Source: Eledone cirrhosa | Taxonomy: Eukaryota | NCBI GenBank assembly: GCA_964016885.1 | Contig: OZ024742.1 | Location: 354,640,001-354,704,000, forward strand | Direction of reading: 5' to 3' | DNA length: 64,000 nucleotides | Part shown: positions 9,091-58,190 of the stretch, in pieces | How positions within the stretch are numbered: position 1 is the first letter of the stretch | Layout of the letters: every line of letters begins with the position of its first letter | Program-made: the position numbers and the translations under genes | The notes under the pieces: model-generated | Database searches by the model: none | The model's input: the letters and a program-made list of their open reading frames with translations, nothing else | What the model was told of the DNA's origin: nothing

Positions 9091-9774
9091 AAACTAAAAC
9101 TGAATACTAACCAATACTTATTATTAATATTTACTTATTCCTAATTAAACTATTTTTCACTTGGAACAATTTATCAGCAATTTCTTTTCCTTTTACCAAT
9201 ATATATATATATATATATACATATATATAGATAAATATACACGGGTGTGTATGATTGTGTATAGAAGATTATATTAATAAAAGGAATTCCAACTTTGTCT
9301 GATTTACTTGTTTTATTTACAATCCTTTAAAATGTATAATGGTATTAGAATGAAATTGTATGGTAAAATATTAAATGTTAAGTGTTAATTGAACAAGTAC
9401 TTTGATGCTTTCGCAATCTTCAGGTTCATATTGTGTGGTGACAGTCAAGTTTGCAATGTTCAACTGTAATGAGATGGGTAAATGTTGTGCCTTATATACA
9501 GTGAAAAGTCGCTCCAGAATGCTAAATCTTGCAAACTGTATTTCGACCAATCGGTGTGTAGTTTCACTGGATTACTAAATCTGATTGGTTTAGGCGTCAC
9601 GGTTGGTTGAGCATGTCTAACGACTACTGATTGACCCTATCCAAAGCATCAATTGTTTTGCTATTTTTAGAAATGATGAAAATAACATTTTCATCACCAT
9701 CAACATCTCTTTTATTATTATTATTGTTGCTGTTGTTGTTAGTGCCCGTAGTCATAGTCACACTGCCAAAGCAA

Positions 9775-10304
9775 ACCTACCGATCATTGCTCAAAGTAAT
9801 GCATTAAAAAGCTTAATCACAGATCGATCTTTGACTTCTAGTAAAAGACAGCCGAAAAATTTGAAGCAGTTACTAACAAAAGCAAAGTTTGACCTTAACA
9901 ACAAAGACCAATCATTCACTGTATCTAAATGCAATGATAGTCGATGTGGCACATCTAAATCCATACACGCCGGTCAATATATGAAAATAAAAACTGGAAT
10001 AACATTCCCAAATGCAAATATGAACGGCAAATGCAGAAATCTAATTTACTGCATTAAATGCACGAATTGTGAAGAACTATATGTCGGTCAAACTGGAAAT
10101 GCACTATCGGAACGTGCACGGGTACACCGTCAGCAAATCAGAGACCCGAATATCCGTCAGATTCCCCTAAGTAAGCATCTAGCAACATGTGGTCAGGGAA
10201 TATTTATAATATTCCCATTCTACAAATTGCACAGCCCAAGTGAAATCAAGAGAAAAATCAAAGAAAATAATGTTATTAATAAATTCAAACCCAACCTAAA
10301 TTAA
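9775..10304 (+). pseudogene. PLE linker, Zn-knuckle and GIY-YIG endonuclease
   Basis: KRQPKNLKQLL, CNDSRC, NLIYCIKCTNC..LYVGQT..LSER..HR, E...I...KPNLN. Confidence 0.88.
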
Positions 10305-10657
10305 CAATAATAATGGGGGATTAATCCTACTGTGACTATGACTACGACGACTAAAATCAACAACAACAATAATAATAATAAATGTGATGTTGATGGTGAT
10401 GATTACTAGAAAATGCTATTTTCATCATTTCTAAAATTAGCAAAACAATTGATGCTTTGGATAGGGTCAACCAGTAGTAGTTAGACATGCTCAACCAACC
10501 GTGAAGCCTAAACCAATCAACTTTAGTTATCCATTGAAACTACACACCGATTTGTCGAAATAGAGTTTGCAAGATTTCGCATTCTGGAGCCACTTTTCAC
10601 TGTATTTACCCATCTCATTACAGTTGAAAATTGCAAACTTGACTGTCAGCACACAAT

Positions 10658-10698
10658 ATGTACCTGATGATTGCGAAATCATGAAAGTACTTGTTCAA
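10658..10698 (+). ncRNA. Minimal type I hammerhead in pLTR (mirror copy at ~9390-9430, minus)
   Basis: tg(a/t)ac CTGATGA ttgc-gaaa-(g/t)cat GAAA gtac TT gttca; stem III is the AGTACT palindrome. Confidence 0.65.
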
Positions 10699-10809
10699 TT
10701 AACACTTAACATTTAATATTCTACCATACTATTTCATTCTAATACCATTATACATTTTAAAGGGTTGTAAATAAAACGAGTAAATCAGATAAAGTTTGAA
10801 TTCTTTTTA

Positions 10810-10852
<43 letters not shown>

Positions 10853-11880: not shown

Positions 11881-12133
11881 TCGATGATAAAATTGATTGC
11901 CAAGTAAATTAACTATGGAGATATACAAGATACAGAAGCGAAAACATACCAAACAGTGAGTATTTTCTGATATTATTTCTGGCAATATTATTACAACAAT
12001 ATGAACCTCCTAAAGTATAACAATATATATATATATATATATATCATTATATATATCATGTTATATATATCATTATATATATCATGTTTAACTAGAGTTA
12101 TTAAAAACGTTGCCTAAAAAAAATATTAAACTA

Positions 12134-12399
12134 GGCCTGAAAAATGCGCAAGGTCAAAAGAGCCAGAGAATGTTATAATAAAGCTTCAAAAGTGTGTGAC
12201 TAGAGTTGTTGCTAAAAAATATTGTAATCATTATCTATCGTGCACTCTGTGGCATCCTTTCTCTTTTTTCATAAAACGATGCCACAGAGTGTACCATAGA
12301 TAATGATTACAATATGTTTGAGCAACAACTCTAGTCCCACACTTTTGAAGGTTTATTATAACATTCTCTGGCTCTTTTGACCTTGCGCATTCTTCAGGT
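12134..12399. repeat. Inverted repeat, ~122-bp arms with ~21-nt spacer (MITE or fold-back)
   Basis: 12134-12256 is the reverse complement of 12278-12399. Confidence 0.75.
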
Positions 12400-12628
12400 C
12401 AAGTGTATATATGCATATATAATTCATGTCAGTTTATTTCCTTTAATCCAGTGTTTATGCAATGTAAAGGTGTCAAAAATACGAGAATATCCAATGGACA
12501 GCTGATGCTAGAAATGTCCTTATCATGTTTCTCTACCTTTCATTACTTTTCAGTTTTTTTTTTATATTCGTCGCTGCCTTTATCCTATTTATTTAATATA
12601 TATTTCTTACACATGCATATATGTGACA

Positions 12629-17435: not shown

Positions 17436-18135
17436 ATATATACGGAATATATGAAAATGGGTTTCTAAGCTATATGTTAAGCTTATATTAACTTTCAGCA
17501 GTAAGCGGCGCAAGGAGCGCTTTATTGATAAAGACTATCGCCAGAAACGATGACGTCATTATCGCTTCCTTCCCGTACATAGAATTATAGGAAACATTCT
17601 AGATGGCGCTGGGCCATCAGTTTTCAAACTCATACCTGAGTTTTTCTGACTCAATTGTCATAATGTTTCTCCCTTATATATTGACACGGAACATAATACA
17701 GATCTTACTTACTTACGACAATCAGCGCTAATAAAATGCAAATTAGTACGCCCATTTCAGGATATTACTTTAACTGATAGGTTATATTAGCCACTCGATC
17801 ACGTATATCCTTATTGTTGTTTCGGTCGATAGATGATATAATCTGATTAAACACAAATTATGCTTGTACAACGATGTTGATATGTGTATCTACTAAGATG
17901 CGTAAATGTATATACACATGTAAGCAGTCTCGCCACCGATGATGCGTGCCGAGTCCGCCGCCGCCGACCCGTTTGCTTGTGCGTCGCTGCCGGGAAATCC
18001 AGCCGACGACGCCCAAAAGACTGAATATATAGAGGAGTAACGTTAAGATATCTATGTTATTCTCCCGCAGTATGTCACTCTCTCTCCGCCCCTCTCTTAC
18101 TAGGTCGCTCTTTACTCTCACTCTGTCCTCTCTCT

Positions 18136-18169
<34 letters not shown>

Positions 18170-18363
18170 TTATACAAGTATTATTATTATTGTTAGCACG
18201 GATTAAAATTTTAAGCAAAATAGTTTCAGAGGATCCTGCTTTAGGCTGAAAGCAGCAATATTTTGCTTAATATTTTAATGTAGATATTTTTTTATATATA
18301 CAAATACATATGTCTACGGGTTTATATATATATATATGCTGTGTGTATATATATATATATATA

Positions 18364-18396
<33 letters not shown>

Positions 18397-18399
<3 letters not shown>

Positions 18400-18715
18400 G
18401 GAAAAAATGTAACGAAATTTAATTTCCCACTCTTAGTACGGCTGTTACTTAAATATAAGTATGTACACGTATATGTATACAGACGTACAGTAATATGTAT
18501 ATATATATATATATACGTACATGCACACATATATATATGTACGTATGGATTCACCAAACATTTATTATAATGCTCGGTGTGTTTGTAAACAAACATCCCG
18601 TATTAAGCCGCAGTGTCTAGCAATCACCGTTGCTCGTTTGTTCAACACTGACAAAGAAACGCTGTACTAGTTTCAAGCTTGTTAGCTATCGGAAATATAT
18701 AAGGAAAGTATATAC
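18397..18715 (-). mobile_element. Truncated copy of the 56-kb retrozyme-like family
   Basis: Reverse complement of ~56697-56995, broken inside the HHR core. Confidence 0.7.
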
Positions 18716-18719
18716 CTGT

Positions 18720-26124: not shown

Positions 26125-29100
26125 AGTTAGGGAAGCAGAAAATTGCTTATTGTGATCCAGTTCGTGGTTAAGAAAGCCAGTTTCATGGATGGTTTCAACG
26201 TACAGTTAGGGGTAACTCCAAAAGTTTGTAAAAATTCCGTTCAATCTTGGAGTATAATGAATAAAAGAGAAAACACAGGTAAGTATAAGAGAAGGATTTT
26301 ATCCAGGTATTTACGACCCTTTCATTGGTAAGTGCAACCTTATATTGCTATACTGCAAATAGCAGCCACTCAATTATAATTGTTGTTCACGTCAAAATTT
26401 TCAAAATAGTGAAGAAGTTACTCTGGAAATAGTTGTTAATATATAGAGAAAAACAATTTTTAAATTGTATTTACTCGTATAGAGAGAGGCGAATTAGAAA
26501 GTGAGGGGACACACGGAATAGTATAGAGAGAGAGGAAGGGTGAAAAGTGTTAGGAAGTAGAGTGACAAACTGAGATGGACGGAGGGGTAGAGGTGGAAGG
26601 ATTCCTTCATCAGTTTTTATATGTAGACTTCATGTCGTGGAATGTAGTGAGTTCAAGAGAATTAAATTCATATTAGTGGGAGGAATGGGTAGGGAGAGAG
26701 AAGGGGGGGGGGGGGGTAAAGAGATAAATATACATATAAAAAATAAAGATAAAGATAATAATTACTAAAATAAAAGCAAAGGAGTGCGGATAACGGAGGA
26801 AAGGAAATATAGCCAAAAGGGGAGGGAAGTAAAGAAGAAAGCGAAGAAATAGAAGAGGAATGAAGGAGAAGGGATGGATATAGGTATTGGTTTATGTGGA
26901 TAATTAAAAGGGTTTAGATACAACAAGAGGGTATAAAGGTCTAAGTATAAACAGTTTGTCAGATGGTAGTAAGAGGTTAAGGGTCGATTTGCTCTTAACG
27001 TGTGAAAACTTCTCTTTGAGTATATGGTTACAATAAACTGATCTTTCGATTTTTTGTTGAGTAACTTACTCTTCGATCTCAAAATGTGGAACAGCTCAAG
27101 GTCACATAATCAACAGCTTCTCATACCACTCCGATATGGGGGTGCGTCGATAATTTTTTCCACTTCAGGGTGTATTGATGGTTACTTTCCCTCAGTTGCC
27201 AGGTCTTGTTTGCAAGGGTAGTTACATAGCGATGCTGGGAATGTTTCATTGCGTAACGGTGTGTATACCAACGGGCTTTAAATATATTCCCAGTCGCTCC
27301 GATGTAACACCATTTCTGGTTGTCCGATTCCACTGTGCATTGGAAAACCAGGATAGATTGCATACATTCATTATGTAATGGACAGGTTTCAGGTAGGTGC
27401 CGGTTACAATTATTGTCATGGTCAACTTTGGCATTATTGGTACCCACACATTTAACCTCAATGACCACAAGGTACATTTTGATCATAACCCCACAATTAG
27501 ACTTATATGCGCGTCCAAATCGGACATCGGGAAAATTAGTAAACATATATTAGACATAGTCATAGGACAAATGAAGAATAAACTAGTGATTAAACTATGG
27601 GGTAACGCTTCCGAAACAATTAAGTGGTTTAACAATATAGCTAACAAAAAAGTATATAAATTTATACAATTTGACATTAACGACTATTAGTCCTCTATAT
27701 CCACCAACACCTTGGATAAAGCCTTAGCATTCGCCAAAGCCAATTCTAACCTAACAAACGACGACATAAAAATCATATCAGCTGCTAGGAAAACAATAAT
27801 TAAATTTGAAAACGCCTATTGGAACGTAAGGATAGATTAAATAAAATTGGCATCACGATGGGGGCTAACGACTCGGCTCAAGTCACAGATTTAGTATGTA
27901 TTTACATATCCCATAGTTTACAAAGTGAGTTTAGCGACCGTCACGGTGGAATCTACAGAGACGACGCCCTTATCCTAGTTAAGAACCCTATTAACCAAAG
28001 CATAGAAAGATTCCGTAAGAATTTTAGAAAGATTCTCGGGAACCTAGACCTTATCATAACATATGAGTATAGCACTAAAACAGTTAACTTTCTAGACGCG
28101 ACGCTTAACCTAAATACGGGAGTTATAAGACCTTTTCAAAAGATTAATGAAAACTTAGCATACATCAACTGTAACTCAAACCACCCACTATCCATAATTA
28201 AATCCATTCCGCACAGTATATCCCTTAGACTCTTCCGCCTCTCGTCTAACCGAAAAATCTTCGAGGAACATGCAGAATACTACAATACCGGATTAGACAA
28301 TGCGGGGCACTTAGATAGAGGAGAACGTTTAGATGAAAGCCACCGCAAAGCGCACACGAACACGCATAACACAAACTCTAGAAACACACGCACACACGCA
28401 CTTATTCAAAGAACTACAAAGTATACGGTAAATAGAAATACAACATCGAAATAAAACAAGTCACGCAGTAGAAAATATATTTGGTATAACCCTATATTTA
28501 ACACCTCTATTAGTACTAACTTACCCTCTACCTTCTTTAGAATAAAAAAATAAGCACTTTCCAGATTCACATAGATACACTATAATCCTTAACACTAAAT
28601 CTATTAGACTATCTTACTCCACGGCACCAAATATAGAGGCACACATTAAGATGCTTAACGCTAAACAGATACATAACAACACCAGAACACAAATTTACAA
28701 CAATAACAATACAATCACCCTTAAACACAACATAATATTTAATACACAACCACCCAATAATAGGCAAACAAAACGTAACACATTTGTACAGGCATCGCAG
28801 CCCACCAATAATGCCAAAGTTGCCCATGACAAGAATTGTAACTGCCACCTACCTGAAACATGTCCATTACATAATGAATGTATGCAGTTTAACCTGGTTT
28901 TCCAATGCACAGTGGAATCAGACAACCAGAAATGGCATTACATCGGAGCGACTGGGAATACATTTAAAGCCCGTTGGTATACACACCGTTACGCAATGAA
29001 ACATTCCCAGCATCGTTATGTAACTACCCTTACAAACGAGACCTGGCAACTGAGGGAAAGTAACCATCAACACACCCTGAAGTGGAAAACATTTCGAACG

Positions 29101-29990
29101 CGCCCCCATATCGGAGTGGTATGAGAAGTTGTCGATTATGTGACCATGGTCTGTTACACATATTGAGTTGAAAGAATAAGTTACTCAACAATAAATTCAA
29201 AAGATCAATTTATTGTAACCATAGACTCAAAGAGAAGTGTTCGCACTACAAGTGCAAATCGAACGCTTAACTTCTTACTACCAACTGACAAACTGTATAT
29301 ACTTATACTTTATACCCTCTTGTTGTATCTAAACCCTTTTAATTACCCACAAAAAACAATACATATATCCCTCCCTTCTCTTTCATTCCTCTTCTATTTC
29401 TTTGTTTTCTTCATTCCTTCCCTCCCTTTTGGCTATCTTTTCTTTTCTTCTTTCTCTCCCCTTCTTTGATTTTATTTTTGTCATTATTATCTTTATCTTT
29501 ATTTTTTATATATATATTTATCTCTATATATCTCCCGCTCTCTCTCTCTCTCTATCTCTCCCTCTCTCTCTCTCTCTCTCTATCCATCCTTCCCACTATG
29601 ATCAATTTAATTCTCTTTAACTCAGTACATTCCACGACATGAAGCCTACATATCAAAACTGATCAAGGAATCCTTCCACCTCTACCCCTCCCTCCATCTC
29701 AGTTTGTCACTCTACTTCCTAACTCTTCTCCCCCTTCCTCTCTCTCTATACTATTCCGTTTGTCACCTCACCTTCTAATTCCCCTCTCTCTATACTAGTA
29801 AAAACAATTCCCAAAAAATGTTTTTCTCTATATATTAAGAACTATTTCCAGAGTAACTTACTCACTATTTTGAACATTTTATAATTAAGTGGCTGCTATT
29901 TGCAGTATAGCAATATAAGGTTGCACTTACCAATAAAACGGTCGTTAATACCTGGATAAAATCCTTCTCTTAATGCTTACCTATGTTTTC

Positions 29991-29998
<8 letters not shown>
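26125..29998. mobile_element. Palindromic Naiad-type PLE insertion: minus arm 26125-27441 (EN and 3' UTR) fused to plus arm 27443-29998
   Basis: 26260-27441 is the reverse complement of 28805-29998; (TA)n at both ends. Confidence 0.9.
27443..29270 (+). pseudogene. 5'-truncated Naiad-type RT-GIY-YIG ORF
   Basis: DHK.HF..NPTIRLICASKSDIGKISK; FIQFDINDY; ITMGANDSAQVTDLV; GIYRDD; WYNP; CNC.LPETCPL..EC; YIGAT...FKARW. Confidence 0.9.
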
Positions 29999-30725: not shown

Positions 30726-30825
30726 AAGATAAAGTGATATCATATATGATCAGAAAAAATAGAATATTCATATATATATATGAATATTCTATTTTTTCTG
30801 ATCATATATAATATCACTTTATCTT
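30726..30825. repeat. Near-perfect 100-bp hairpin centred on (TA)n
   Basis: aagataaagtgat...gaatattca TATATA tgaatattc...atcactttatctt. Confidence 0.85.
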
Positions 30826-31759: not shown

Positions 31760-32560
31760 ATAAAATTGCATGTCTGAAGAATTATTAGATACTATATACA
31801 CAGTATTTCCTCTCCCTAGTCCGTATAAATCAACTAGAGAAATAATCATTTATACTATGCTATAAGTTTAAAATGTAACTATGAAGAAATAATAGACAAA
31901 CGATATAGACTATTTTTCGCGAGGAACAGTCAGATAAAATGTATCTAGTCATTCTTTTTAGCCCGTAGAAATTAACTAGACAAATAATCAATTCAAAGGA
32001 GTTAGGTCGAAAATATAAGTTAGAAGAAAACATTCATATAAACTTTACCAACATTCCTCTTGTCCCGACTGTCGGCAGTTTCGCTCGTTCTTTGTGGATA
32101 TATCCGAACCTGGAATTATCCATGAGTCTTCGAGCTTATTAAGAGACTCCTCAAATTTGGACTAACATTTCTATAGTGATCGCCGCAAGAAATGAATTCA
32201 AAAATGGCTAAGAATCACCATGTGGCTAGTGGTCAAATTAGAAGGTTGTCAATGGTGGTTATGCGGCAGGTAGGCTGGCTGTTAGAAAGCAGAGCCAGAT
32301 ACTGGCTAAAGTCTTACTCTACCGTACGGGAATATATATTAAATTCATAGGGATATATGTATATATTTAGACGTATATTTACACATAGTCACATATACAT
32401 ATCTGAGTGTGGCTACCTTTCACGATGTGACTCAATGAAACATTTAATTAAGCAAATAATTATTAATCAGAGCTATATATAACATTGCGAGTTTGAAGAA
32501 GTATTAGATAAAAGGTAGCCACACTCATATATGTATCTGTGACTATGTCTAAATATATAT
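31760..32560 (-). mobile_element. Family A copy with short fold-back end
   Basis: 32200-32480 resembles 140-400 and 31775-31830 resembles 400-450. 32510-32555 is inverted relative to 32375-32420. Confidence 0.6.
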
Positions 32561-32563
32561 ATT

Positions 32564-32595
<32 letters not shown>

Positions 32596-34798: not shown

Positions 34799-34865
34799 TA
34801 TTTTATCTGATGAGGACGTACTGTTGAACTTAACTCAGCACCTCTGAAATATGTATAATAAAATA
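34799..34865 (+). ncRNA. Type I hammerhead at the end of an AT-rich pLTR (33850-34910)
   Basis: tattttat CTGATGA ... GAAA tatgta TA ataaaata; perfect 8-bp stem I. Confidence 0.8.
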
Positions 34866-34905
34866 TACTTGATCACAATAATTTCTATTTTGTTAATATT
34901 TTGAA

Positions 34906-35015
<110 letters not shown>

Positions 35016-35035
35016 TGTGTGTGTATAAATGTATA

Positions 35036-35164
35036 TTTTAATATAGAAAAGCTTCCCCAGGACTAGAACTGTTTCATTCGTGAGAAGTCCTCCTCAGGAG
35101 CTGCCTGATGATTTCTCACGAATGAAACAGTTCTAGTCCTGTGGAAGTTTTTCTATATTAAAAC
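35036..35164. repeat. Short fold-back element with HHR-like core (CTGATGA 35105, GAAA 35124)
   Basis: About 50-bp inverted arms; a related arm lies at 41575-41635. Confidence 0.65.
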
Positions 35165-35231
35165 ATTTAACTCTGGTATGTATTGAGTACCTTACTTACT
35201 GTGGTTAACCCCGATTGAACCCGGAATAACT

Positions 35232-35273
<42 letters not shown>

Positions 35274-36860
35274 TATATTAATGAAAAAGAACAAAGGAAC
35301 TATTATGACATGATAACGAGTTTATTGCAGACAGCCGTTTCGTCCGACCATATGGTTGGACTTTTCAAGGCATAAAACTTGTGATTGTAAGTTCATTATT
35401 TACATCAACGTATCACTTAAGACTAGCAGTGTGAAATTGTGGTATACATCAGCAGCTCCGCTTGTATATGTGGGCCTATATTCTAAGAGGGCTCTTTTAT
35501 ATTAGTTGTCGGAATTGTAAAAGGGATGGGTTATGCGGAGTTAAGATAATTAGAAAATGGCCTAAGAGTAAGGGATTGAAGGTTAAAAATTAGATAATTT
35601 ATAATTTACGCATTAAAAATAAAAGACGTGGGATCTCGTAGAAGCACATTAAAAAATCCCTCAATAAGTGCATAAAGCTTACAAGCCCCAATAACCTTAA
35701 CAAACTAGAAGAGATTAAGAGACTAATGAAATAAAATAAAATAAAAAAATAAAGATATAAAGTTTCCGTAAAAAAATATAAAGTTTCCCAAGAAGTTCCT
35801 TCGAGAGAAAAAAATTTCTTTCGAAAGAAAAAAACTTTCTTCCCCAGAGATCTCGTTAAAAAAATTAAGAAAATTTACGAAGTTTTGATAATCCCTACTA
35901 AGTTGAAAGAAACTAATCAATTAAAGGTTAATTCAAAAAGCCTTCAATAAACCCCTCAGAAAAGGCCCCTTTAATATTTTTAATAGGAACCTCCTCCGAG
36001 AGACCCTTCGAAGAATTAAAATTTTAGAGAGCCTTTAAGGATATATATAAACGAATTGAGGAAAATTATAAATTAAAAGTTAAAAATTACGGTATTTGGG
36101 ATATCCGAGGAATTTTCAAAGGGCTGCTTCAACAGATACAACTTAGGTATACTAGATAAAATAATTTAAGTAATTTAAGTAATTTAATTAGGGAGCAATT
36201 CAAAGAGCTTATCAAGTTGGGCAAGATTAAAGAAAATTATAAGTAAGAAATTACATAAGCAAAAGGACAATAATTATAAAATGTATTTTTAAGAAGGTAT
36301 AAAGTAGCTTCACTAATCTAATAATGTACTATCAAAAAATTATTATAAAATTATTACAAAATTATCATAAAACTATTGATACAGGATTAAAAAATTACTA
36401 TAAAATTATTGATACAGGATTAACAAAGACATAATAATATATTCCTGCCTAATTAACAAAAAATCAATAAACAATTAACAGTCAAGCAAAATTAGCTCAG
36501 GGATATCCCGCTCTCGGATACTTTACACACATACAGCATCACATATGATTAACAAAGACATAATGTTATAATCCTGCGTAATTAACAAACAATTAATTAA
36601 CAATTGATAGTCAAGAAAATGTACTCAGGGATATCCCACGCACGGATACTTTACACACATACAGCAGGATAAACAATACAGGTGACCTTGTGGGCGCGAT
36701 ATCCATTATGCGTATGTAGTCATCTGCATAGCTCCAGGCACATTTGGTCTTGTTTAAAAGTTCAGAGTTCACGAATCAACTGGGATTCACTATCAGCTGC
36801 GTGGACTCTCTGGTAAATGTACCTGTGGATCAAATAGCTATTGGTTGCTGGGTGTGGTCC

Positions 36861-38155
36861 TCAAAGCAATTGTTAAGGGAGTATCTAGTAGGATTAGCGG
36901 ACTATCTAGCAGTGTGACCGCATTTGAAGCGAACGCGGAGTATTACAATAAGGCGCTAGCTGGGTCAGGGCACAAAGATAAACTCCATTATGTAGAGACA
37001 GGCGGCACCACCCCACCACCCCAACCCAGCACTGTAATCACGCATGATATGTCCATGGGAGATAGAGGGAGAGCTAGAAAGACGAATAGGGACAATAGGA
37101 ATTTAGCTAAGAACAACAACACTAGCAATGCAGACACGGATAGGGCCTACGCGCCTGGAAAGCACTACGCCACCCCAAGCAAGTCCAACAGTAAAAACAG
37201 GGGCCTGAGGCCTAGGAGACTCGAGACCAAAACACATACCACTGGAAGCCCAGCAACCACACGTGGTAGAACCCGTAATAATATAGATGAAGGGAGGGTA
37301 AGCAGCATAGGGGATAAGAAACGCAGTGGAAGGAATAGAAGACGTGATAGAACCTTCTTTAACCCGCCCTTCAACTCTAATGTTACTACAGACCTCACCA
37401 AATCTTTTTTCTCTTTAATAGATAGGAACTTCCCCCCAGGTAGAAGGTACGGTAGTGTCATCAATAAGAATACTATCAAACTATCGTACTCAGCAACCCC
37501 TAATCTGGCCTCACACCTAGCTAAGACCAATAAGAGTAAGATTAAAGAGGGACTTAAGGCCATCCGAAATAGTGAACCACGCCAGTACACACGACAACAC
37601 GGGACCAACCCATTGAGTGAATGACCCAGGGGGATAACAGGCAATATAACCGGTCCCACTAGGCAGCCCCGCGGCCGTTTGGAGGGACACGCACCCCTGA
37701 TTGAGGAGCAGGACCCTATTAGAAAGTGTAATTGGAGACGGAAGGGCAAATGCCCACTAGCTGGACACTGCCTTATTAGGAACGTGGTATATGCATGTAA
37801 CGTAACCACAGACACGTATACTAAGACATATGTGGGATCAACCGCTAACCAGTTCAAGACGAGATTCAACGCCCACCAGCATAGCTTCCGATATGAGAAG
37901 CTTAAAAATACCACGTCGTTAGCGGGACACATACATAACTTAAAACAAACAAAAAACCCCTACACACTAAGCTGGAGATGCCTTACTATAGCTCCTCCAA
38001 ATAGCTCGTTGAGCAGGTTTTGTAGCCTGTGCCTAACTGAATCTCATGCCATAGTATTCTCAGGACTCAACTTGCTCAACAAGAGATCATAAATCTTCTC
38101 GTCCTGCCCCCACAATATACTTAGCTCTTTCTTTTTCTTCAGACCAGACACATAG
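36861..38155 (+). pseudogene. Naiad-type thumb, linker, Zn finger and GIY-YIG
   Basis: VSSRISGLSS..YYNKAL..SG; FFNPPF; IKLSYS; CNW..KGKCPLAGHCL; YVGST..FKTRF; CSLCLTE; LNKR. Confidence 0.9.
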
Positions 38156-38347
38156 CCCTGACCCCACCCTATCCTGCACATGGCTGCCCCGCTGGCGAAC
38201 AGGGTGCTCCTTAGTAACCCCGTCCGCATTGATGCCTCGGCTGCCCTATTGCCGATGGGGACTCTGGTGAGGAACAGTCGACCCTGTGTCCCTATTGCCA
38301 ACCTGGGATTGGTGGCAGCATTGTTGTTGGGCACCCTGCGGGCAGAT

Positions 38348-38605
38348 GATGCCTGCGGTGTAGTACATTGTGAGTGCCTGGACCCACGTTGACTAATCTG
38401 GGGAGGTGCCATCGGAGATGTATTTCAACAAATTCGGGAACTTGCCCAAGGAAACAGTAACAGCACACCCAATATGGATGCCTGTGGTGTGGGACATTGT
38501 GAGTGCCTGGACCCACGTTGACTAATCTGGGGAGGTGCCGTCGGAGATATATGTCAACAAATACGGGAACTTGCCCAGGGAAACAGTAACAGAACACCCA
38601 ATATG
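38348..38605. repeat. 129-bp tandem duplication in the PLE 3' UTR
   Basis: Two adjacent similar copies starting gatgcctg at 38348 and 38477. Confidence 0.85.
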
Positions 38606-40925
38606 GCGGCCGCTCCCTGCCTATAACCAATCAAACCCCCTCCTCCCCTAATAAACCCCCGCCCAAATATATGCCCCTCCCCATTCTCCCCCACTCACTT
38701 CTTTTGAGTTAGTTCTCCTTTATTATTAGTGGTTCTTTTTGAGTTAGTTCTTTATTAAAAGTGATATTTTGTATATTACCACGGTTGACTTAATGGGCAT
38801 GGAGAATTGACTCCCTTGATGTCTGACCACTCGATAAGTTAGGGGTTGTGCCCCTTGCGCAGGGGTGTGTCTAGCTGGTCTACCTGCTCTCTGCTACGAC
38901 CCGAGACTGGACACGGTCGTAGCCACAGGCCAGCGCGTGCGCGATAGCATGGGATATAATTTGTTTGCTAGTCACCCCGTGTAATATGATACCCCAAGAT
39001 TCCATGCATGAGATTCACCGAAGCATGCGCAGTCTTAACCGGGAGATGAGAAACGAATTTGAAAATAACACAAGAGAGACCCTTTGGATAGCGTAGACGC
39101 CGGACCATGCCCGCAAATATATACAGACCTGTCTTGAATATGCATGGCTAGCGCAATATGGATAACGCGACCAAAATCTAAGCTTGAACCGACCCCTACA
39201 ACAGACAAATAGAGGACAGCCCTTCGCATTTGACCAGTCGCGTGTGTGCTTGGAGTTCGTAGTATACCACCCCAGTCAAATCCACACTGGTTTTTTTACC
39301 AATATAGCATGTAAACCAATACATCCTATGCAGCGAGACCTTGGATTAAGAACCGGCAGCGTGCAATCCCCGAAACTAAAAGATCGAACGGACCACACCC
39401 AGCAACCAATAGCTATTTGATCCACAGGTACATTTCCCAGAGAGTCCACGCAGCTGATAGTGAATCCCAGTTGATTCGTGAACTCTGAACTTTTAAACAA
39501 GACCGAATGTGCCTGGAGCTATGCAGATGACTACATACGCATAATGGATATCGCGCCCACAAGGTCACCTGTATTGTTTATCCTGCTGTATGTGTGTAAA
39601 GTATCCGTGCGTGGGATATCCCTGAGTACATTTTCTTGACTATCAATTGTTAATTGATTGTTTGTTAATTACGCAGGAGTATACCATTATGTCTTTGTTA
39701 GTCATATGTGATGCTGTATGGGTGTAAAGTATCCCTGAGCGGGATATCCCTGAGCTAATTTTGCTTGACTGTTAATTGTTTATTGATTTTTTTGTTAATT
39801 AGGCAGGAATATATTATTATGTCTTTGTTAATCCTGTATCAATAATTTTATAGTAATTTTTTAATCCTGTATCAATAGTTTTATGATAATTTTGTAATAA
39901 TTTTATAATAATTTTATAATAATTTTGTGATAATTTTATAATAATTTTTTGATAGTACATAATTAGATTAGTGAAGCTACCTTATACCTTCTTAAAAATA
40001 CATTTTATAATTATTTTCTTTTAAAAATACATTTTATAATTATTGCCCTTTTGCTTATGTAATTTCTTACTTATAATTTTCTTTAATCTTGCCCAACTTG
40101 ATAAGATCATGAATTGCTCCCTAATTAAATTACTTAAATTACTTATTTTATCTATTATACCTAAGTTGTATCTGTTGAAGCAGCCCTTTGAAAATTCCTC
40201 GGATATCCCAAATACCGTAATTTTTAACTTTTAATTTATAATTTTCCTCAATTCGTTTATATATATCCTTAAAGGCTCTCTAAAATGTTAATTCTTCGAA
40301 GGGTCTCTCGGAGGAGGTTCCTATTACAAATATTAAAAGGACCTTTTCTGAGGGGTGTATTGAATGATTTTTGAATTAACCTTTAATTGATTAGTTTGTT
40401 TCAACTTAGTAGGGATTATCAAAACTTCGTAAATTTTCTGAAATTTTTTAACGAGATCTCTGGGGAAGAAGGTCTTTTTCTTTCGAAAGAAATGTTTTCC
40501 TCTCGAAGGAACTTGTTGGGAAACTTCATATTTTTTTACGGAAACTTTATATCTTGATTTTTTTATTTTATTTTATGTTATTAGTCTCTTAATCTCTTCT
40601 AGTTTGTTAAGTTTATTGGGGCTTGTAAGATTTATGCACTTATTGGGGGATTTTTTAAGGTGCTTCTACGAGATCCCAAGTCTTTTACTTTTAATGCCTA
40701 AATTATAAATTATCTAATTTTTAACCTTCAATCCCTGACTCTTAGACCATTTTCTAACTCCCCATAACCCATCCCTTTTACAATTCCGACAACTAATATA
40801 AAACAGCCCCCTTAGAATATAGACCCCAAATATACAAGCGGAGCTGCTGATGTATACCACAATTTCAAACTGCAAGTCTTAAGTGATACGTTGATGTAAA
40901 TAATGAACTTACAATCACATGTTAT

Positions 40926-40974
40926 TTGCCTTGAAAAGTCCAACCATATGGTCGGACGAAACGGCTGTCGGCAA
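40926..40974 (+). ncRNA. Type I hammerhead with U3-A8 core (mirror copy 35325-35373, minus)
   Basis: ttgcc TTGAAAA gtcc-aacc-atat-ggtc-ggac GAAA cggctg TC ggcaa. Confidence 0.8.
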
Positions 40975-41533
40975 TAAACTTATTATAATGTCATAATAGT
41001 TCCTTTGTTCTTTTTCATTAATATTTCTGCTCTGCTTATACGCATAGAGCTTAACTAGCTACCGTCGCATATTTGGTAGGTCCGACGTGATCATCGCGAT
41101 TCACATACGACCTACCATACATCTTGCTTATATATATATATATATATATAATCTGTCCTAAAGAGTTTGTCTCCTGATGTGTTCGAAGCTCGAGATTTTA
41201 TCCATAATAGGATATATCAAAATGCGGACGAGACCCGGGGTTAGCGACATAATCCTGGTATGTGTATAAGCATTTCTTGTAACTTTAATGTTATACTTAA
41301 TAGTGTATGGTTGACCATGTATTTAATCGATTTCCACGTGCTGTTGAAATGTTGGGGAACATTCCATGGCGGTTGGCCGCGAAGAGATTGCTGTCGTTTA
41401 TTTATTTTCTATTTCTTCATAGGTGCCTTTTAATCTTATAGCCTGGTCTAATTTATTTTTTGTGTGGTTAATTATGCTAATTGGGAGAGAAAATGGTGTA
41501 TATATATTATCATATGATTCTATGGTCATACTT

Positions 41534-42861: not shown

Positions 42862-43571
42862 ATAATAATAAATTTGAAGACTAAAATCCAAAGAGGACTC
42901 GATAAGGATAAATATATATCAAATATATAAGAACCGTTTCAGAAGATCCCGTTAAGGGTGAAAGCAGCGATTCTTTGCTTAAACTTTAATCTGTTATTTT
43001 AATAAATATATATATATATATATGTATATATGCAGAGGTTATATTTAATTTGTTGGAATTCAACAAGCTTAACAATTTTAAACTAATTATTAATATTAGA
43101 TTATTAAATTAAATCTTTAATATTAAGGCAAATTTAAATCTTTAATTTTGATTTCTAATTTTGAACCTATCATTATAAGTATTGTAATCAAAACGTAATG
43201 AACCCTGAATTATAAATATTTCTGTTCCACGTTAATCTTATTTCTTCTTTAACTTAGATATACTTACGCTGTGTATATTTCTCCTTTGAAACTTATTTCT
43301 TCATGCACTCTATCTTCACTATCAATATATATAATCGTTCTTTCTTTCCTCTTCTAAAATTCTCCCTTCTTTTTTCTTTTCTTCTCTCTCCCTTACATAT
43401 CATGTTCTTCCAACAGTTTAAATAAACCGTTATCTTTTCAACCTTTCGGCCACTCATTTGCATACTCACTCATAACTTTGTATTACCCTCAATATCCAGG
43501 AAGCTCCAACCGTTAAGGTTGTCAATATTTATTTATAAATATTGTCAATATTTATTTATAAAACAAATCTG

Positions 43572-47907: not shown

Positions 47908-52503
<4,596 letters not shown>

Positions 52504-52564: not shown

Positions 52565-52854
52565 TATAAAGAAAAAAAGATGGAATCTAAAATGCAACTG
52601 GAGTCTTATTTAAAAAATATATATATATATTTACTTGGTTCCTTTACCGGTTTCGCAGTTCTGCATTTCAAAAGTAGAGTTGAGATGGTGGGGCTGTGGT
52701 TTTTCTCACATCTGTGAGAAAAACCACAGACCCACCATCTCAACTCTACTTTTGAAAAGCAGAAGCACTGCGAAACCGGTAAAGGAACCAAATAAATATA
52801 TATACTTTTTTTTTAAATAAGACTCCATTTGCATTTTCGATTTCATCTTTTATT

Positions 52855-52861
<7 letters not shown>
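52565..52861. mobile_element. Fold-back mini-element (~146-bp arms, 2-nt loop) carrying a U3-A8 hammerhead (52749-52784)
   Basis: ctt TTGAAAA gcag-aagca-ctgc GAAA ccgg TA aag. Confidence 0.75.
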
Positions 52862-54544: not shown

Positions 54545-54873
54545 GGATACTCAGGTAGAGACGCTACTTCTCCGAACTGAGTGATTACAGCAACGATAAT
54601 ATGAGCATGTAGTCAGAATATCACGGGAAAGAATCGCTGCACAGATTCTACGGGCACAACCAGCCGGAAGGAGACCTAGGAGTAGACCCAAGGCAAGTTG
54701 GTTGGATGACAACCAGGAGCTGGTGACGCTTGGAGATCCAGCCGTATCAGTTGGAGACAATTGCTTCTGACAGGGCCCGTTGGAATTCTACCCCCATGAC
54801 ATTCGAAGAAGAAGAAGAAGAAGAAGAAGAAGAAGAAGAAGAAGAAGAAGAAGAAGAAGAAGAAGAAGAAGAA

Positions 54874-54904
<31 letters not shown>

Positions 54905-54910
54905 AAGAGG
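54545..54910 (+). mobile_element. RTE-like LINE 3' end with (GAA)n tail
   Basis: YEHVVRISRERIAAQIL..GRRPRSRPKASWLD. Confidence 0.7.
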
Positions 54911-55099
54911 AGCACTCATGTACAATCGGACTAATCTAAGCAATTACTAGTGGAAATATGAATGTCAGAAGAACAAGTTGTAAAGGCGATCCTTTAACAG
55001 TTATGGCGTTTTATGATCATCGCTATCTTAGTTTATCTAAATGTTCATGACACGGATTAAATCATACCTATCGTACTTCACCAACGTTCGATACTAAAT

Positions 55100-55365: not shown

Positions 55366-55396
55366 CATATTTCACTCAATATATATATATATCCAC

Positions 55397-56152
55397 TCAC
55401 ACTATGCTAAACCCATGATCTCCAAATACCTGATACTCAAAAACTCAGCAATGTCCAGTAGTGCTAAGTTTAATATTCTGATGCAGTTCTCTGGCTACAA
55501 CCAAAGAGACCGAATCAGAGTATACGAAGGAGCCACGGAGAAGTATAAGACCCTCATAGAACTAGACATGAAAGGAATTTGCCCATTATACAGGAGCAAA
55601 TCATGGAATAGCTTAGACAGGACTAGACATAAGATAGGGAAAGCCACCCCATGGTACGACAAACAGAGATACCAGAGTGTCATGTTGGTGGACGCTACCC
55701 CTGGAGGGAAATTAGCTAACCAGTGTAGAAAGGCCCGGAGAAAGATCCACTTAAAGATTAAGGTGGTAGAAAAGCCAGGAACCACCATAAAATCCCTGAT
55801 CAGCTAAATCTACCCTTTTAAGAAAACCCACTGTACTAATAGGAAATGTATTATATCTAAAGTAAACCCCCGGATAAACTGTAAAACTAGAAACGTAGTC
55901 TATAGCATAAGATGTACAGAGGGTACTTGCAGAAACATGACAACAGCATACACAGGCGAGACAGCTCGTAGCATAGGTGGAAGGATAGACCAACAATGGG
56001 GGGAACAAAAAGGACGAAAACAAAGTTCAGTACTATACGAACATGCCAGATAATAACACGAAGGTAACATAGACAACATAGACATTAGAATAATATCTAA
56101 ACATAGAAATGACCCAGCAGATAGGCAAATCAGAGAGGCCAGCGAAATAGAA
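55397..56152 (+). pseudogene. Third PLE lineage: thumb, linker and GIY-YIG fragment, cut off by the adjacent palindrome
   Basis: YAKPM..SA; SGY; LYRSKSW; TPGG.L; IKVVEKPG; C....C; VVYSIRC..C..YTGETARS; RQIREA. Confidence 0.8.
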
Positions 56153-56154
56153 CT

Positions 56155-56995
56155 GTATACATACATACATATATGTAGACAGACGTACTGTAGTATGTAT
56201 ATATATACATACATTCACACATATATATATTTATGTGCGTATGGGTTTACCGAACATTTATTATAATCTTCGGTTTGTTTGTAAATAAACATCCCGAATT
56301 ACGCCGTACAGTGTTCGGCAACCATCGTTACCCCTTTCGTTCAACACTGACAGAGGAACGATGAACTAGTTTCAAGCTTATTAGCTATCGTCAGCACCGT
56401 ATACCTTCCTGTCAGATGATTGAACGTTTGAAAGTATATACTTTCCCTATGTATATTAACGGCTGAGCGGACTAATTTGCATATCGAGAGAGTTAGTCGG
56501 GCGGGCGTACCGAAAACAATAAGTGGAAAATAATGAAATGAAATTTCATTTCATTCTTTTCCACTTATTCTTTTCGGTACGCCCGGCCGACTAATTCACT
56601 CCATATGCAAATTACGCTGCTCAGCCGTTAATATACATAAGGAAAGTATATACTTTCAAATGTTCAATCATCTGACAGGAAGGTATACGACGCTGACGAT
56701 AGCTAATAATCTTGAAACTAGTTCATCGTTCCTTTGTCAGTGTTGAACAAAAGGGCAACGATGGCTGCCGAACAACGTACGGGGTAATTCGGGCTGTTTA
56801 TTTACAAACAAACCGAACATTATAATAGATGTTCGGTAAACCCATACGTACATAAATATATATATGTGTGAATGTATGTATATATATACATACTAATGTG
56901 CATCTGTATACATATATGTATGTACGTATACATACATATATTTAAGTAACGGCCGTACTAAGAATGAGAAATGAAATTTCATTTCATTCTTTTTC
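56155..56995. mobile_element. Inverted dimer of a ~433-nt non-coding HHR unit (retrozyme-like)
   Basis: Axis at 56543/56544. HHRs at 56358-56400 (minus) and 56687-56729 (plus): acggtg CTGACGA t-agct-aata-agct-t GAAA ctag TT catcgt. Confidence 0.8.
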
Positions 56996-57306
56996 ATATA
57001 TATATATATATATAAAAACAAATAACGAAACGAAATTAAATATCGTTTCGTTTGTAACTCACTTTTGTATGACTGACGCTTAAACAATTAAGTTAAAAAT
57101 GTACATCCACATATGTATACTGAAATACTAGTAGGCATATGAATACACACACGTGTACATATGTAGATGTACCGAGTTTTTCACTGGTCACTTTACTGTG
57201 AGTGTCCAGCTATACTGTATTTAAACACACAGACAAACCGGTTTCTAGAGTCATACTGGTTTTTGAGGAAACACCTTTCCTCTATTCTTCAGAAAGCCAG
57301 ACAAGG

Positions 57307-57351
57307 AATATTGGACTAGTTTCGATGTTGTTACATCTCATCAGCAATATT
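57307..57351 (-). ncRNA. Canonical minimal type I hammerhead
   Basis: aatattg CTGATGA gatg-taacaa-catc GAAA ctag TC caatatt; GUC triplet. Confidence 0.92.
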
Positions 57352-57772
57352 TACCTATCTTCCGGCCTTTCTAGAGAATCGTAAAAGCACATATCGTAAT
57401 ATGCTTTTTCTATGAAAATTAGTAGTGGGCAGACTAATTTGCATAGAGCGTGAGTACGTACCGGTTCAACGGAGACGATAAAAACAAATAACGAAACGAA
57501 ATTAAATTTTGTTTCGTTTGTAACTCACTTTTGTATGACTGACGCTTAAACAATTAAGTTAAAAATGTACATCCACATATGTATACTGAAATACTAGTAG
57601 GCATATGAATACACACACGTGTACATATGTAGATGTACCGAGTTTTTCACTGGTCACTTTACTGTGAGTGTCCAGCTATTCTGTATGTAAACACACAGAC
57701 AAACCGGTTTTTAGAGTCATACTGATTTTTGAGGAAACACCTTTCCTCTATTCTCCAGAAAGCCAGACACGG

Positions 57773-57817
57773 AATATTGGAGTAGTTTCGATGTTGTTAC
57801 ATCTCATCAGCAATATT
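57773..57817 (-). ncRNA. Second hammerhead of the dimer (stem III mutated, CUC triplet)
   Basis: Identical to the first except ctag>ctac. Confidence 0.8.
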
Positions 57818-57965
57818 TACCTATCTTCCGGCCTTTCTAGAGAATCGTAAAAGCACATATCGTTATATGCTTTTTCTATGAAAATTAGTAGTGGGCAGAC
57901 TAATTTGCATAGAGCGTGAGTACGTAGCGGTTCAACGGAGACGATATATATATATATTTATATAT

Positions 57966-58190
57966 ATAAAAATAACAGATTAAAGTTTAAGCAAAAATCG
58001 GTGCTTTCACCCTTAACGGGATATTCTGTTTCCGAAGATCACGTTAAGTGTGAAAGCAGCGATTCTTTGCTTAAACTTCAATCTGTTATTTTATTAAATA
58101 TTTGCCCTACGGTTATATATATTTGATGTATATTTATTATTATCGAGCCCTCTTTGGATTTTAGTCTTCAATTTTATTATTATTACTATA
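57966..58190. repeat. Small dispersed family with fold-back (relatives at 18190-18295 and 42858-43010)
   Basis: Shared gatcccgttaagggtgaaagcagcgattctttgcttaaac; inverted arms at 57966-58095. Confidence 0.6.

Follow-up and report, generated by a model that had tools for sequence, protein, structure and literature searches.

We interpret positions 56154–56995 of the window (the whole 64,000-nt stretch of Eledone cirrhosa DNA that was analysed) as a non-coding 433-nt non-LTR retrozyme with a predicted hammerhead ribozyme and an inverted copy of itself, which probably owes its insertion to the enzymes of a Penelope-like element (PLE); the probability of this reading is put at roughly 0.8. Judged from its letters, the folded-back copy is an inactive, aged derivative of a high-copy retrozyme family. 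No function is evident for this single decayed insertion, and every feature described here has precedent. The mobilisation of animal retrozymes by PLEs has so far been argued from co-occurrence and from kinship with PLE pseudo-LTRs (pLTRs). A retrozyme bearing the PLE footprint of a fixed 3' end, a (TA)n target, a partial tandem and an inverted arm with a palindromic junction is independent support for it. The features of the locus and of its relatives in the window are collected in Table 1.

Table 1. Features of the folded-back retrozyme copy, the adjoining PLE fragment and related insertions (window positions)
Feature	Positions	Strand	Basis or remark
(TA)6 tract where the PLE fragment homology begins	55380..55392	.	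P0001 homology from 55391
5'- and 3'-truncated, decayed PLE ORF fragment	55391..56158	+	3 stops; homology to P0001
Left arm, inverted copy of 56544–56932	56154..56543	-	blastn, arm alignment; 63 nt short of unit end
Type I hammerhead motif, left arm	56358..56400	-	motif scan, fold z -2.4, compensatory changes
Octamer ATGCAAAT, left arm	56475..56482	-
18-nt perfect palindrome with the inversion junction	56535..56552	.	shuffle-tested
3' end of preceding unit (right hairpin half and T-run); terminal redundancy, a very short partial tandem	56544..56562	+
One full 433-nt unit	56563..56995	+	non-coding, 35% GC, fold z -6.4
Octamer ATGCAAAT, right arm	56605..56612	+	conserved in 466-nt neighbour
Type I hammerhead motif, right arm	56687..56729	+	predicted cut after 56723
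63-nt stretch of the right arm only; possible PLE-type tail or deletion loss	56933..56995	+
3' hairpin and T-run, end common to all window insertions of the superfamily; likely RT start	56960..56995	+
(TA)n target tract, tail-to-tail between right arm and neighbour	56996..57014	.	sequence
Neighbour, an exact dimer (466-nt hammerhead unit, head to tail) with (TA)n tracts on either side	57012..57945	-
Second copy of the 433-nt family, 5'-truncated, same 3' end at (TA)n	18377..18716	-	blastn, alignment

The inverted repeat was identified by blastn at 56154–56932, with 91.8% identity over 780 nt, and alignment of one arm to the other gave 32 differences in 390 columns, comprising 31 substitutions and one gap. 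The inversion axis (56543/56544) is the centre of the 18-nt palindrome, and a second copy of this palindrome is found 433 nt further on, at 56968–56985. The first-pass annotation had described a unit of about 433 nt with a folded-back inverted copy whose axis is the centre of a self-complementary motif, and both observations hold. It had also reported a terminal redundancy, which is present, though the quoted 27-mer is not fully repeated: the exact direct repeat, starting at 56535 and 56968 (spacing 433), is 26 nt because the first copy has four T rather than five, and self-complementarity is confined to its 18-nt core. A 29-nt direct repeat was returned by blastn with an E value of 9e-7, and none of 300 dinucleotide shuffles of the unit contained a perfect palindrome of at least 18 nt; the palindrome and the direct repeat are not attributable to chance. 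Perfect palindromes of at least 16 nt occupy 54 of the 433 positions of the unit, and the 18-nt palindrome about 4%. As the 9 nt to the left of the axis would come from the inversion itself, the independent redundancy amounts to the 17–20 nt right of the axis. The inversion junction lies inside the palindrome, and no finer placement is possible. The left arm does not contain the final 63 nt of the unit; the right arm closes with a T-run, after which (TA)n begins.

An artefact, in which the palindrome would be a fold-back chimera from sequencing or assembly, is scarcely credible. Palindromes are numerous in the window and the junction is spanned by no listed read or contig, but the arm differences are substitutions with a single exception, and the palindromes of the window have arms 74 to 98% identical, as expected for insertions of different age. 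The two arms were also compared with the family alleles in reads at 32 variant rows, taken from 40 of 169 rows. The left arm carried the read allele in 14 of the rows, which again speaks against a chimera; both arms differed from the read allele in 16, and a third letter was found in two. At seven of these 16 sites, 74–99% of the raw reads carry the other letter, and both arms likely share a recent source or one template, the sites being a sample of 40 of 169 rows and the read pool a mixture of subfamilies. With the second window copy as an outgroup, 11 arm-specific changes were assigned to the right arm and seven to the left, with one unresolved (p 0.48); both arms thus changed after the event, which likewise argues against an assembly chimera.

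The unit contains no ORF of at least 80 amino acids. Its family boundary likely lies about 5 nt to the right of 56995, as suggested by comparison with the neighbour. In the left-arm hammerhead motif stems I and II are intact and stem III is minimal with a palindromic loop, and cleavage is predicted after 56364. In the right-arm motif, private changes at 56691 (stem I) and 56710 (stem II) have damaged both stems; family reads mostly carry the pairing letters at these positions. The motif scan returned six type I hammerhead candidates in the whole window, of which one is in the left arm and two are in the neighbouring dimer. A separate family with AT-rich stems accounts for three further type I hammerhead-like motifs, at 34807, 43580 and 47344 (all +), which possibly lie within PLE pLTRs. 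Between the 433-nt and 466-nt families, both members of a pair have changed in three of six stem I pairs and two of four stem II pairs; as the four sequences span two lineages only, this covariation is modest evidence. Rfam HH9 scored 38.9 and 29.7 bits on the neighbour motifs, below its gathering score of 52, and Rfam lists no match for the hammerhead motif of the 433-nt unit. The Rfam microRNA matches were rejected as chance matches to hairpins and microsatellites. Fold z-scores against shuffles were -6.4 and -7.6 for the 433-nt and 466-nt units respectively, to which TA-rich hairpins contribute part.

The neighbouring dimer is homologous to the 433-nt unit from end to end, with an alignment score of 120 against 26 +/- 4 for 200 shuffles, and its own two units are 97.6% identical. 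Both kinds of unit exhibit the same order of an octamer, a short palindrome, the hammerhead motif, TA-rich hairpins, the 3' hairpin and a T-run. The neighbour stands tail-to-tail with the folded-back copy. The octamer is conserved in both families some 35–40 nt into the unit, at window positions 56605, 56482, 57444 and 57910, and is a possible snRNA-type promoter element. It is also present in a similar context at 17736 and 43463. The promoter of newt satellite 2, a hammerhead-bearing tandem unit of about 330 nt that resembles the present one by description rather than by sequence comparison, includes an octamer, and by analogy the octamer of the 433-nt unit may be a promoter element of the same kind. 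The newt promoter is reported to be internal and of the snRNA type, as cited in the available text of PMC2220036; PMC2837043 gives no information on the promoter.

Assignment of reads and contigs to the unit at 80% likeness was performed with four of 20 runs, the small-share runs X4 and X6–X17 being left out. In two reduced-representation runs the family accounted for 30,634 of 12,467,656 and 29,789 of 12,785,554 raw reads, and in two other runs for 3,969 of 16,517,967 and 51 of 762,587 contigs. Two pattern scans of metagenome contigs returned no loci. Read mapping omitted the repeat-rich 3' part of the unit, including the terminal hairpin. Depth at 56548 relative to 56595 was 59% and 54% in the raw reads and 108% in the contigs of X1, a run that may come from the source sample; this indicates that the hairpin followed by the unit start is the usual junction, and therefore that copies longer than one unit are common. 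This bears out the earlier proposal that reverse transcription had run beyond one unit. Molecule ends accumulate at 56542, 56610/56613 and 56786/56789; as these positions coincide with AATT sites, they were rejected as element ends and are read as restriction cuts of the library.

In the accessible text on metazoan non-LTR retrozymes (PMC7229834, PMC7761336, bioRxiv 10.64898/2026.07.22.740005), these elements are described as non-coding units of 150–450 nt with a GC content below 50%, a type I hammerhead with a weak stem III and a palindromic loop, head-to-tail repeats, a high copy number and co-occurrence with PLEs, and the present family resembles them in each respect. The unit itself has the type I hammerhead motif and is non-coding, low in GC and within the stated length; the head-to-tail arrangement is found in the family, through the junction common in reads and contigs and the homologous dimer adjoining the locus. 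The locus departs from the described retrozymes in that its single unit is extended by about 20 nt and is joined to an inverted arm on the 5' side; cleavage here is predicted and circular RNA hypothetical. Two consecutive complete units are the criterion for an active retrozyme in the available text of bioRxiv 10.64898/2026.07.22.740005; the folded-back copy has the single unit just described, with its right-arm hammerhead damaged.

Kinship with pLTRs raises the alternative that the unit is the pLTR of an autonomous PLE, left as an ORF-less remnant, and not an independent non-autonomous family. We regard this as very unlikely. It draws on reports that pLTRs have type I hammerheads and the same inverted, palindromic junction (PMC11167929 and PMC3846280, in the text available) and that retrozymes are related to pLTRs (bioRxiv 10.64898/2026.07.22.740005, likewise). 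In the family, however, unit follows unit head to tail without an intervening ORF, the homologous neighbour is a pure dimer, not one of the window's five unit copies follows an ORF in the sense orientation, and the unit is without an ORF of its own. An RT and GIY-YIG ORF within the element, as an autonomous PLE would have, is absent from this non-coding unit, and no autonomous partner was matched at the DNA level.

The retrotransposon origin assumed by the first-pass annotation is upheld by the hammerhead motif together with the ends of the insertions. All three insertions in the window (the right arm, the 18377–18691 copy and the neighbour) end at the hairpin, T-run and (TA)n. The predicted cut site is located about 270 nt upstream of this common 3' end, and each insertion runs through the site unbroken, so that the RNA template was uncut or religated. 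In length, the neighbour is exactly 2.0 units, the folded-back copy 1.0 unit plus about 20 nt, and the second copy about 0.7 unit. Whole-unit stops fit a circle, on which the enzyme meets its own product, and end-to-end jumps between linear units equally well. In our judgement, a circle as template stands a little below even odds, an uncut tandem transcript is a tentative second candidate, and an end-to-end jump between linear units is doubtful.

The insertion has further counterparts in the available text on endonuclease-bearing PLEs (PMC3846280, PMC8557442, PMC11167929), with which it shares a partial tandem, a slightly shorter inverted 5' copy, a palindrome at the junction, an AT-rich or (TA)n target and a fixed RT start at a stem-loop. 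Partial tandems, an inverted 5'-truncated copy, a 30–40-bp tail and a (TA)n bias are standard for PLEs (PMC8557442), and palindromes of 18 bp and 38 bp are reported at pLTR 5' ends, where an inverted pLTR overlaps the direct one by 15 bp and is 37 bp shorter (PMC3846280). PMC11167929 describes reverse transcription that begins internally, in a stem-loop, along with AT-rich targets and a predominant use of uncut RNA as template in vitro. At the locus the partial tandem comes with an inverted 5' copy, the inverted junction falls in a palindrome and the target is AT-rich or (TA)n. Unlike PLEs, the element is without an RT or endonuclease ORF. The left arm falls 63 nt short, against a PLE tail of 30–40 nt, and only one full unit stands in tandem, both of which count against the reading as a PLE-inserted retrozyme; the one-sided extension could reflect a deletion, and this stretch lies outside the read mapping. 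A target-site duplication was not seen at the folded-back copy.

Under the preferred reading, a PLE endonuclease would nick the (TA)n tract, and reverse transcription would start at the 3' hairpin and T-run and read through the hammerhead cut site. The RT would then pass the unit boundary and stall in the next hairpin, where the cDNA end would pair with its own complement and then use the cDNA as template for 389 nt. The palindrome would be fixed by repair, and the arms would since have drifted by about 4% each. The palindromes at PLE inverted junctions have been interpreted as self-priming on an antisense template (PMC3846280, in its available text), whereas here we infer a snap-back of the nascent cDNA. 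Longer-than-unit cDNA from circles has already been modelled (PMC7761336, likewise), and with the published PLE and retrozyme models each step proposed in the first-pass annotation has precedent. No account of an inverted PLE footprint on a retrozyme was found in the literature searched, which lay mostly outside subscription papers and comprised text without figures or supplements. The word "inverted" has no occurrence in the main text of PMC7229834 and one, within a reference title, in the available text of bioRxiv 10.64898/2026.07.22.740005.

Snap-back at the hairpin, as originally proposed, fits the locus, where the junction is inside the palindrome, but does not extend readily to the family. 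Strand-change joints are listed at 56580/56622, 56603/56676, 56662/56736 and 56735/56777, each in 3–7 reads or one contig. At the 5' end of the second window copy, 21 nt are inverted beside a different palindrome, of 16 nt, without involvement of the terminal hairpin. None of these five inversion points is at the terminal hairpin, which makes a programmed fold-back at this hairpin improbable for the family; the test is weak, as an apparent library cut site in the axis makes fold-backs there largely invisible in reads and the 3' part of the unit was unmapped. Strand-change joints detected in short reads could be chimeras of the library. Reads running past the left end number 366 and 281, with no strand-change joint listed there. 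The proposal that all inversion joints lie at natural stems was rejected: one of the four listed joints has such a stem, of 7 bp, a length attained by 4% of the positions with the same span, and the other three were no better than background.

A different history is improbable, namely that a normally inserted and aged retrozyme was later copied in inverted form at the DNA level, through a template switch during replication or through break repair acting at the 18-nt palindrome, and that the flank was lost. The shared minority alleles fit it equally well, and the left junction truncates the PLE ORF and the arm alike. Against it, eight of 10 self-inverted structures chosen from the blastn results abut (TA)n at an end and the largest of them contain PLE ORFs, which is the published PLE pattern, and no flanking DNA is found in the inverted arm. 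The folded-back copy is the only one of the 10 whose 16-nt axis seed recurs one unit away.

The truncated GIY-YIG ORF that the insertion was said to abut is a real, decayed PLE fragment. It encodes the C-terminal third of the protein, comprising the region C-terminal to the RT core, a Cys linker and a GIY-YIG-type endonuclease, and about 25 C-terminal residues are missing (median, 29 of 30 aligned relatives). Aligned to P0001, which its source names as a reverse-transcriptase-domain protein, the fragment is 48.9% identical over 225 columns and has a 30-residue gap. Relatives at E <= 0.001 numbered 1489, and the one named relative, labelled Octopus vulgaris by its source, was 48% identical. Pfam matches on the relatives, GIY-YIG (P0003) and RVT_1 (P0060), were weak and below the cut-off; Pfam gave no family on the window ORF pieces 55415–55804 and 55808–56050, and Atlas matches were all under 0.9. 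By the description in the available text of PMC8557442, the Cys linker before the endonuclease suggests the Neptune/Nematis clade. A (GAA)n tract about 110 nt long is located upstream of the fragment, at 54804–54912.

The final 5 nt of the fragment overlap the left arm, to which it is antisense. Two accounts of the contact exclude each other. Either the fragment and the retrozyme are two (TA)n insertions joined by a deletion, or the whole of 55391–56995, bounded by (TA)n, would be one nascent strand, in which retrozyme cDNA snapped back and then switched onto the mRNA of a helper PLE. The latter is unlikely in our estimate; the polarities of the fragment and the arms are compatible with it, and if true it would point directly to the element that serves as helper for an animal retrozyme. 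Taken with the lengths of the neighbour and of the folded-back copy, 2.0 units and 1.0 unit plus about 20 nt, it would further show that both ends of retrozyme insertions are set at a hairpin boundary, some 160 nt away from where the ribozyme cuts.

The window is eukaryotic, AT-rich and rich in microsatellites, and contains at least 10 PLE endonuclease-like coding fragments and several other inverted PLE structures. Large inverted structures are located at 47955–52244, 26261–29998, 35271–41028 and 9270–10817, the first two of which contain PLE ORF fragments in both orientations and (TA)n at one end. The arms of the 4.3-kb structure are 96% identical and are separated by a 23-nt spacer with a small hairpin. 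Short palindromes with arms 74–98% identical, most of them beside (TA)n, occur at 278–639, 665–939, 12123–12412, 30726–30825, 32333–32595, 34899–35288 and 52565–52861, and probably arose when members of other families were inserted with the same kind of fold-back. A family of imperfect palindromes of about 140 nt is also present (57960–58101, 42936–43023 and 18223–18299), with two of the three copies beside hammerhead-unit insertions at (TA)n.
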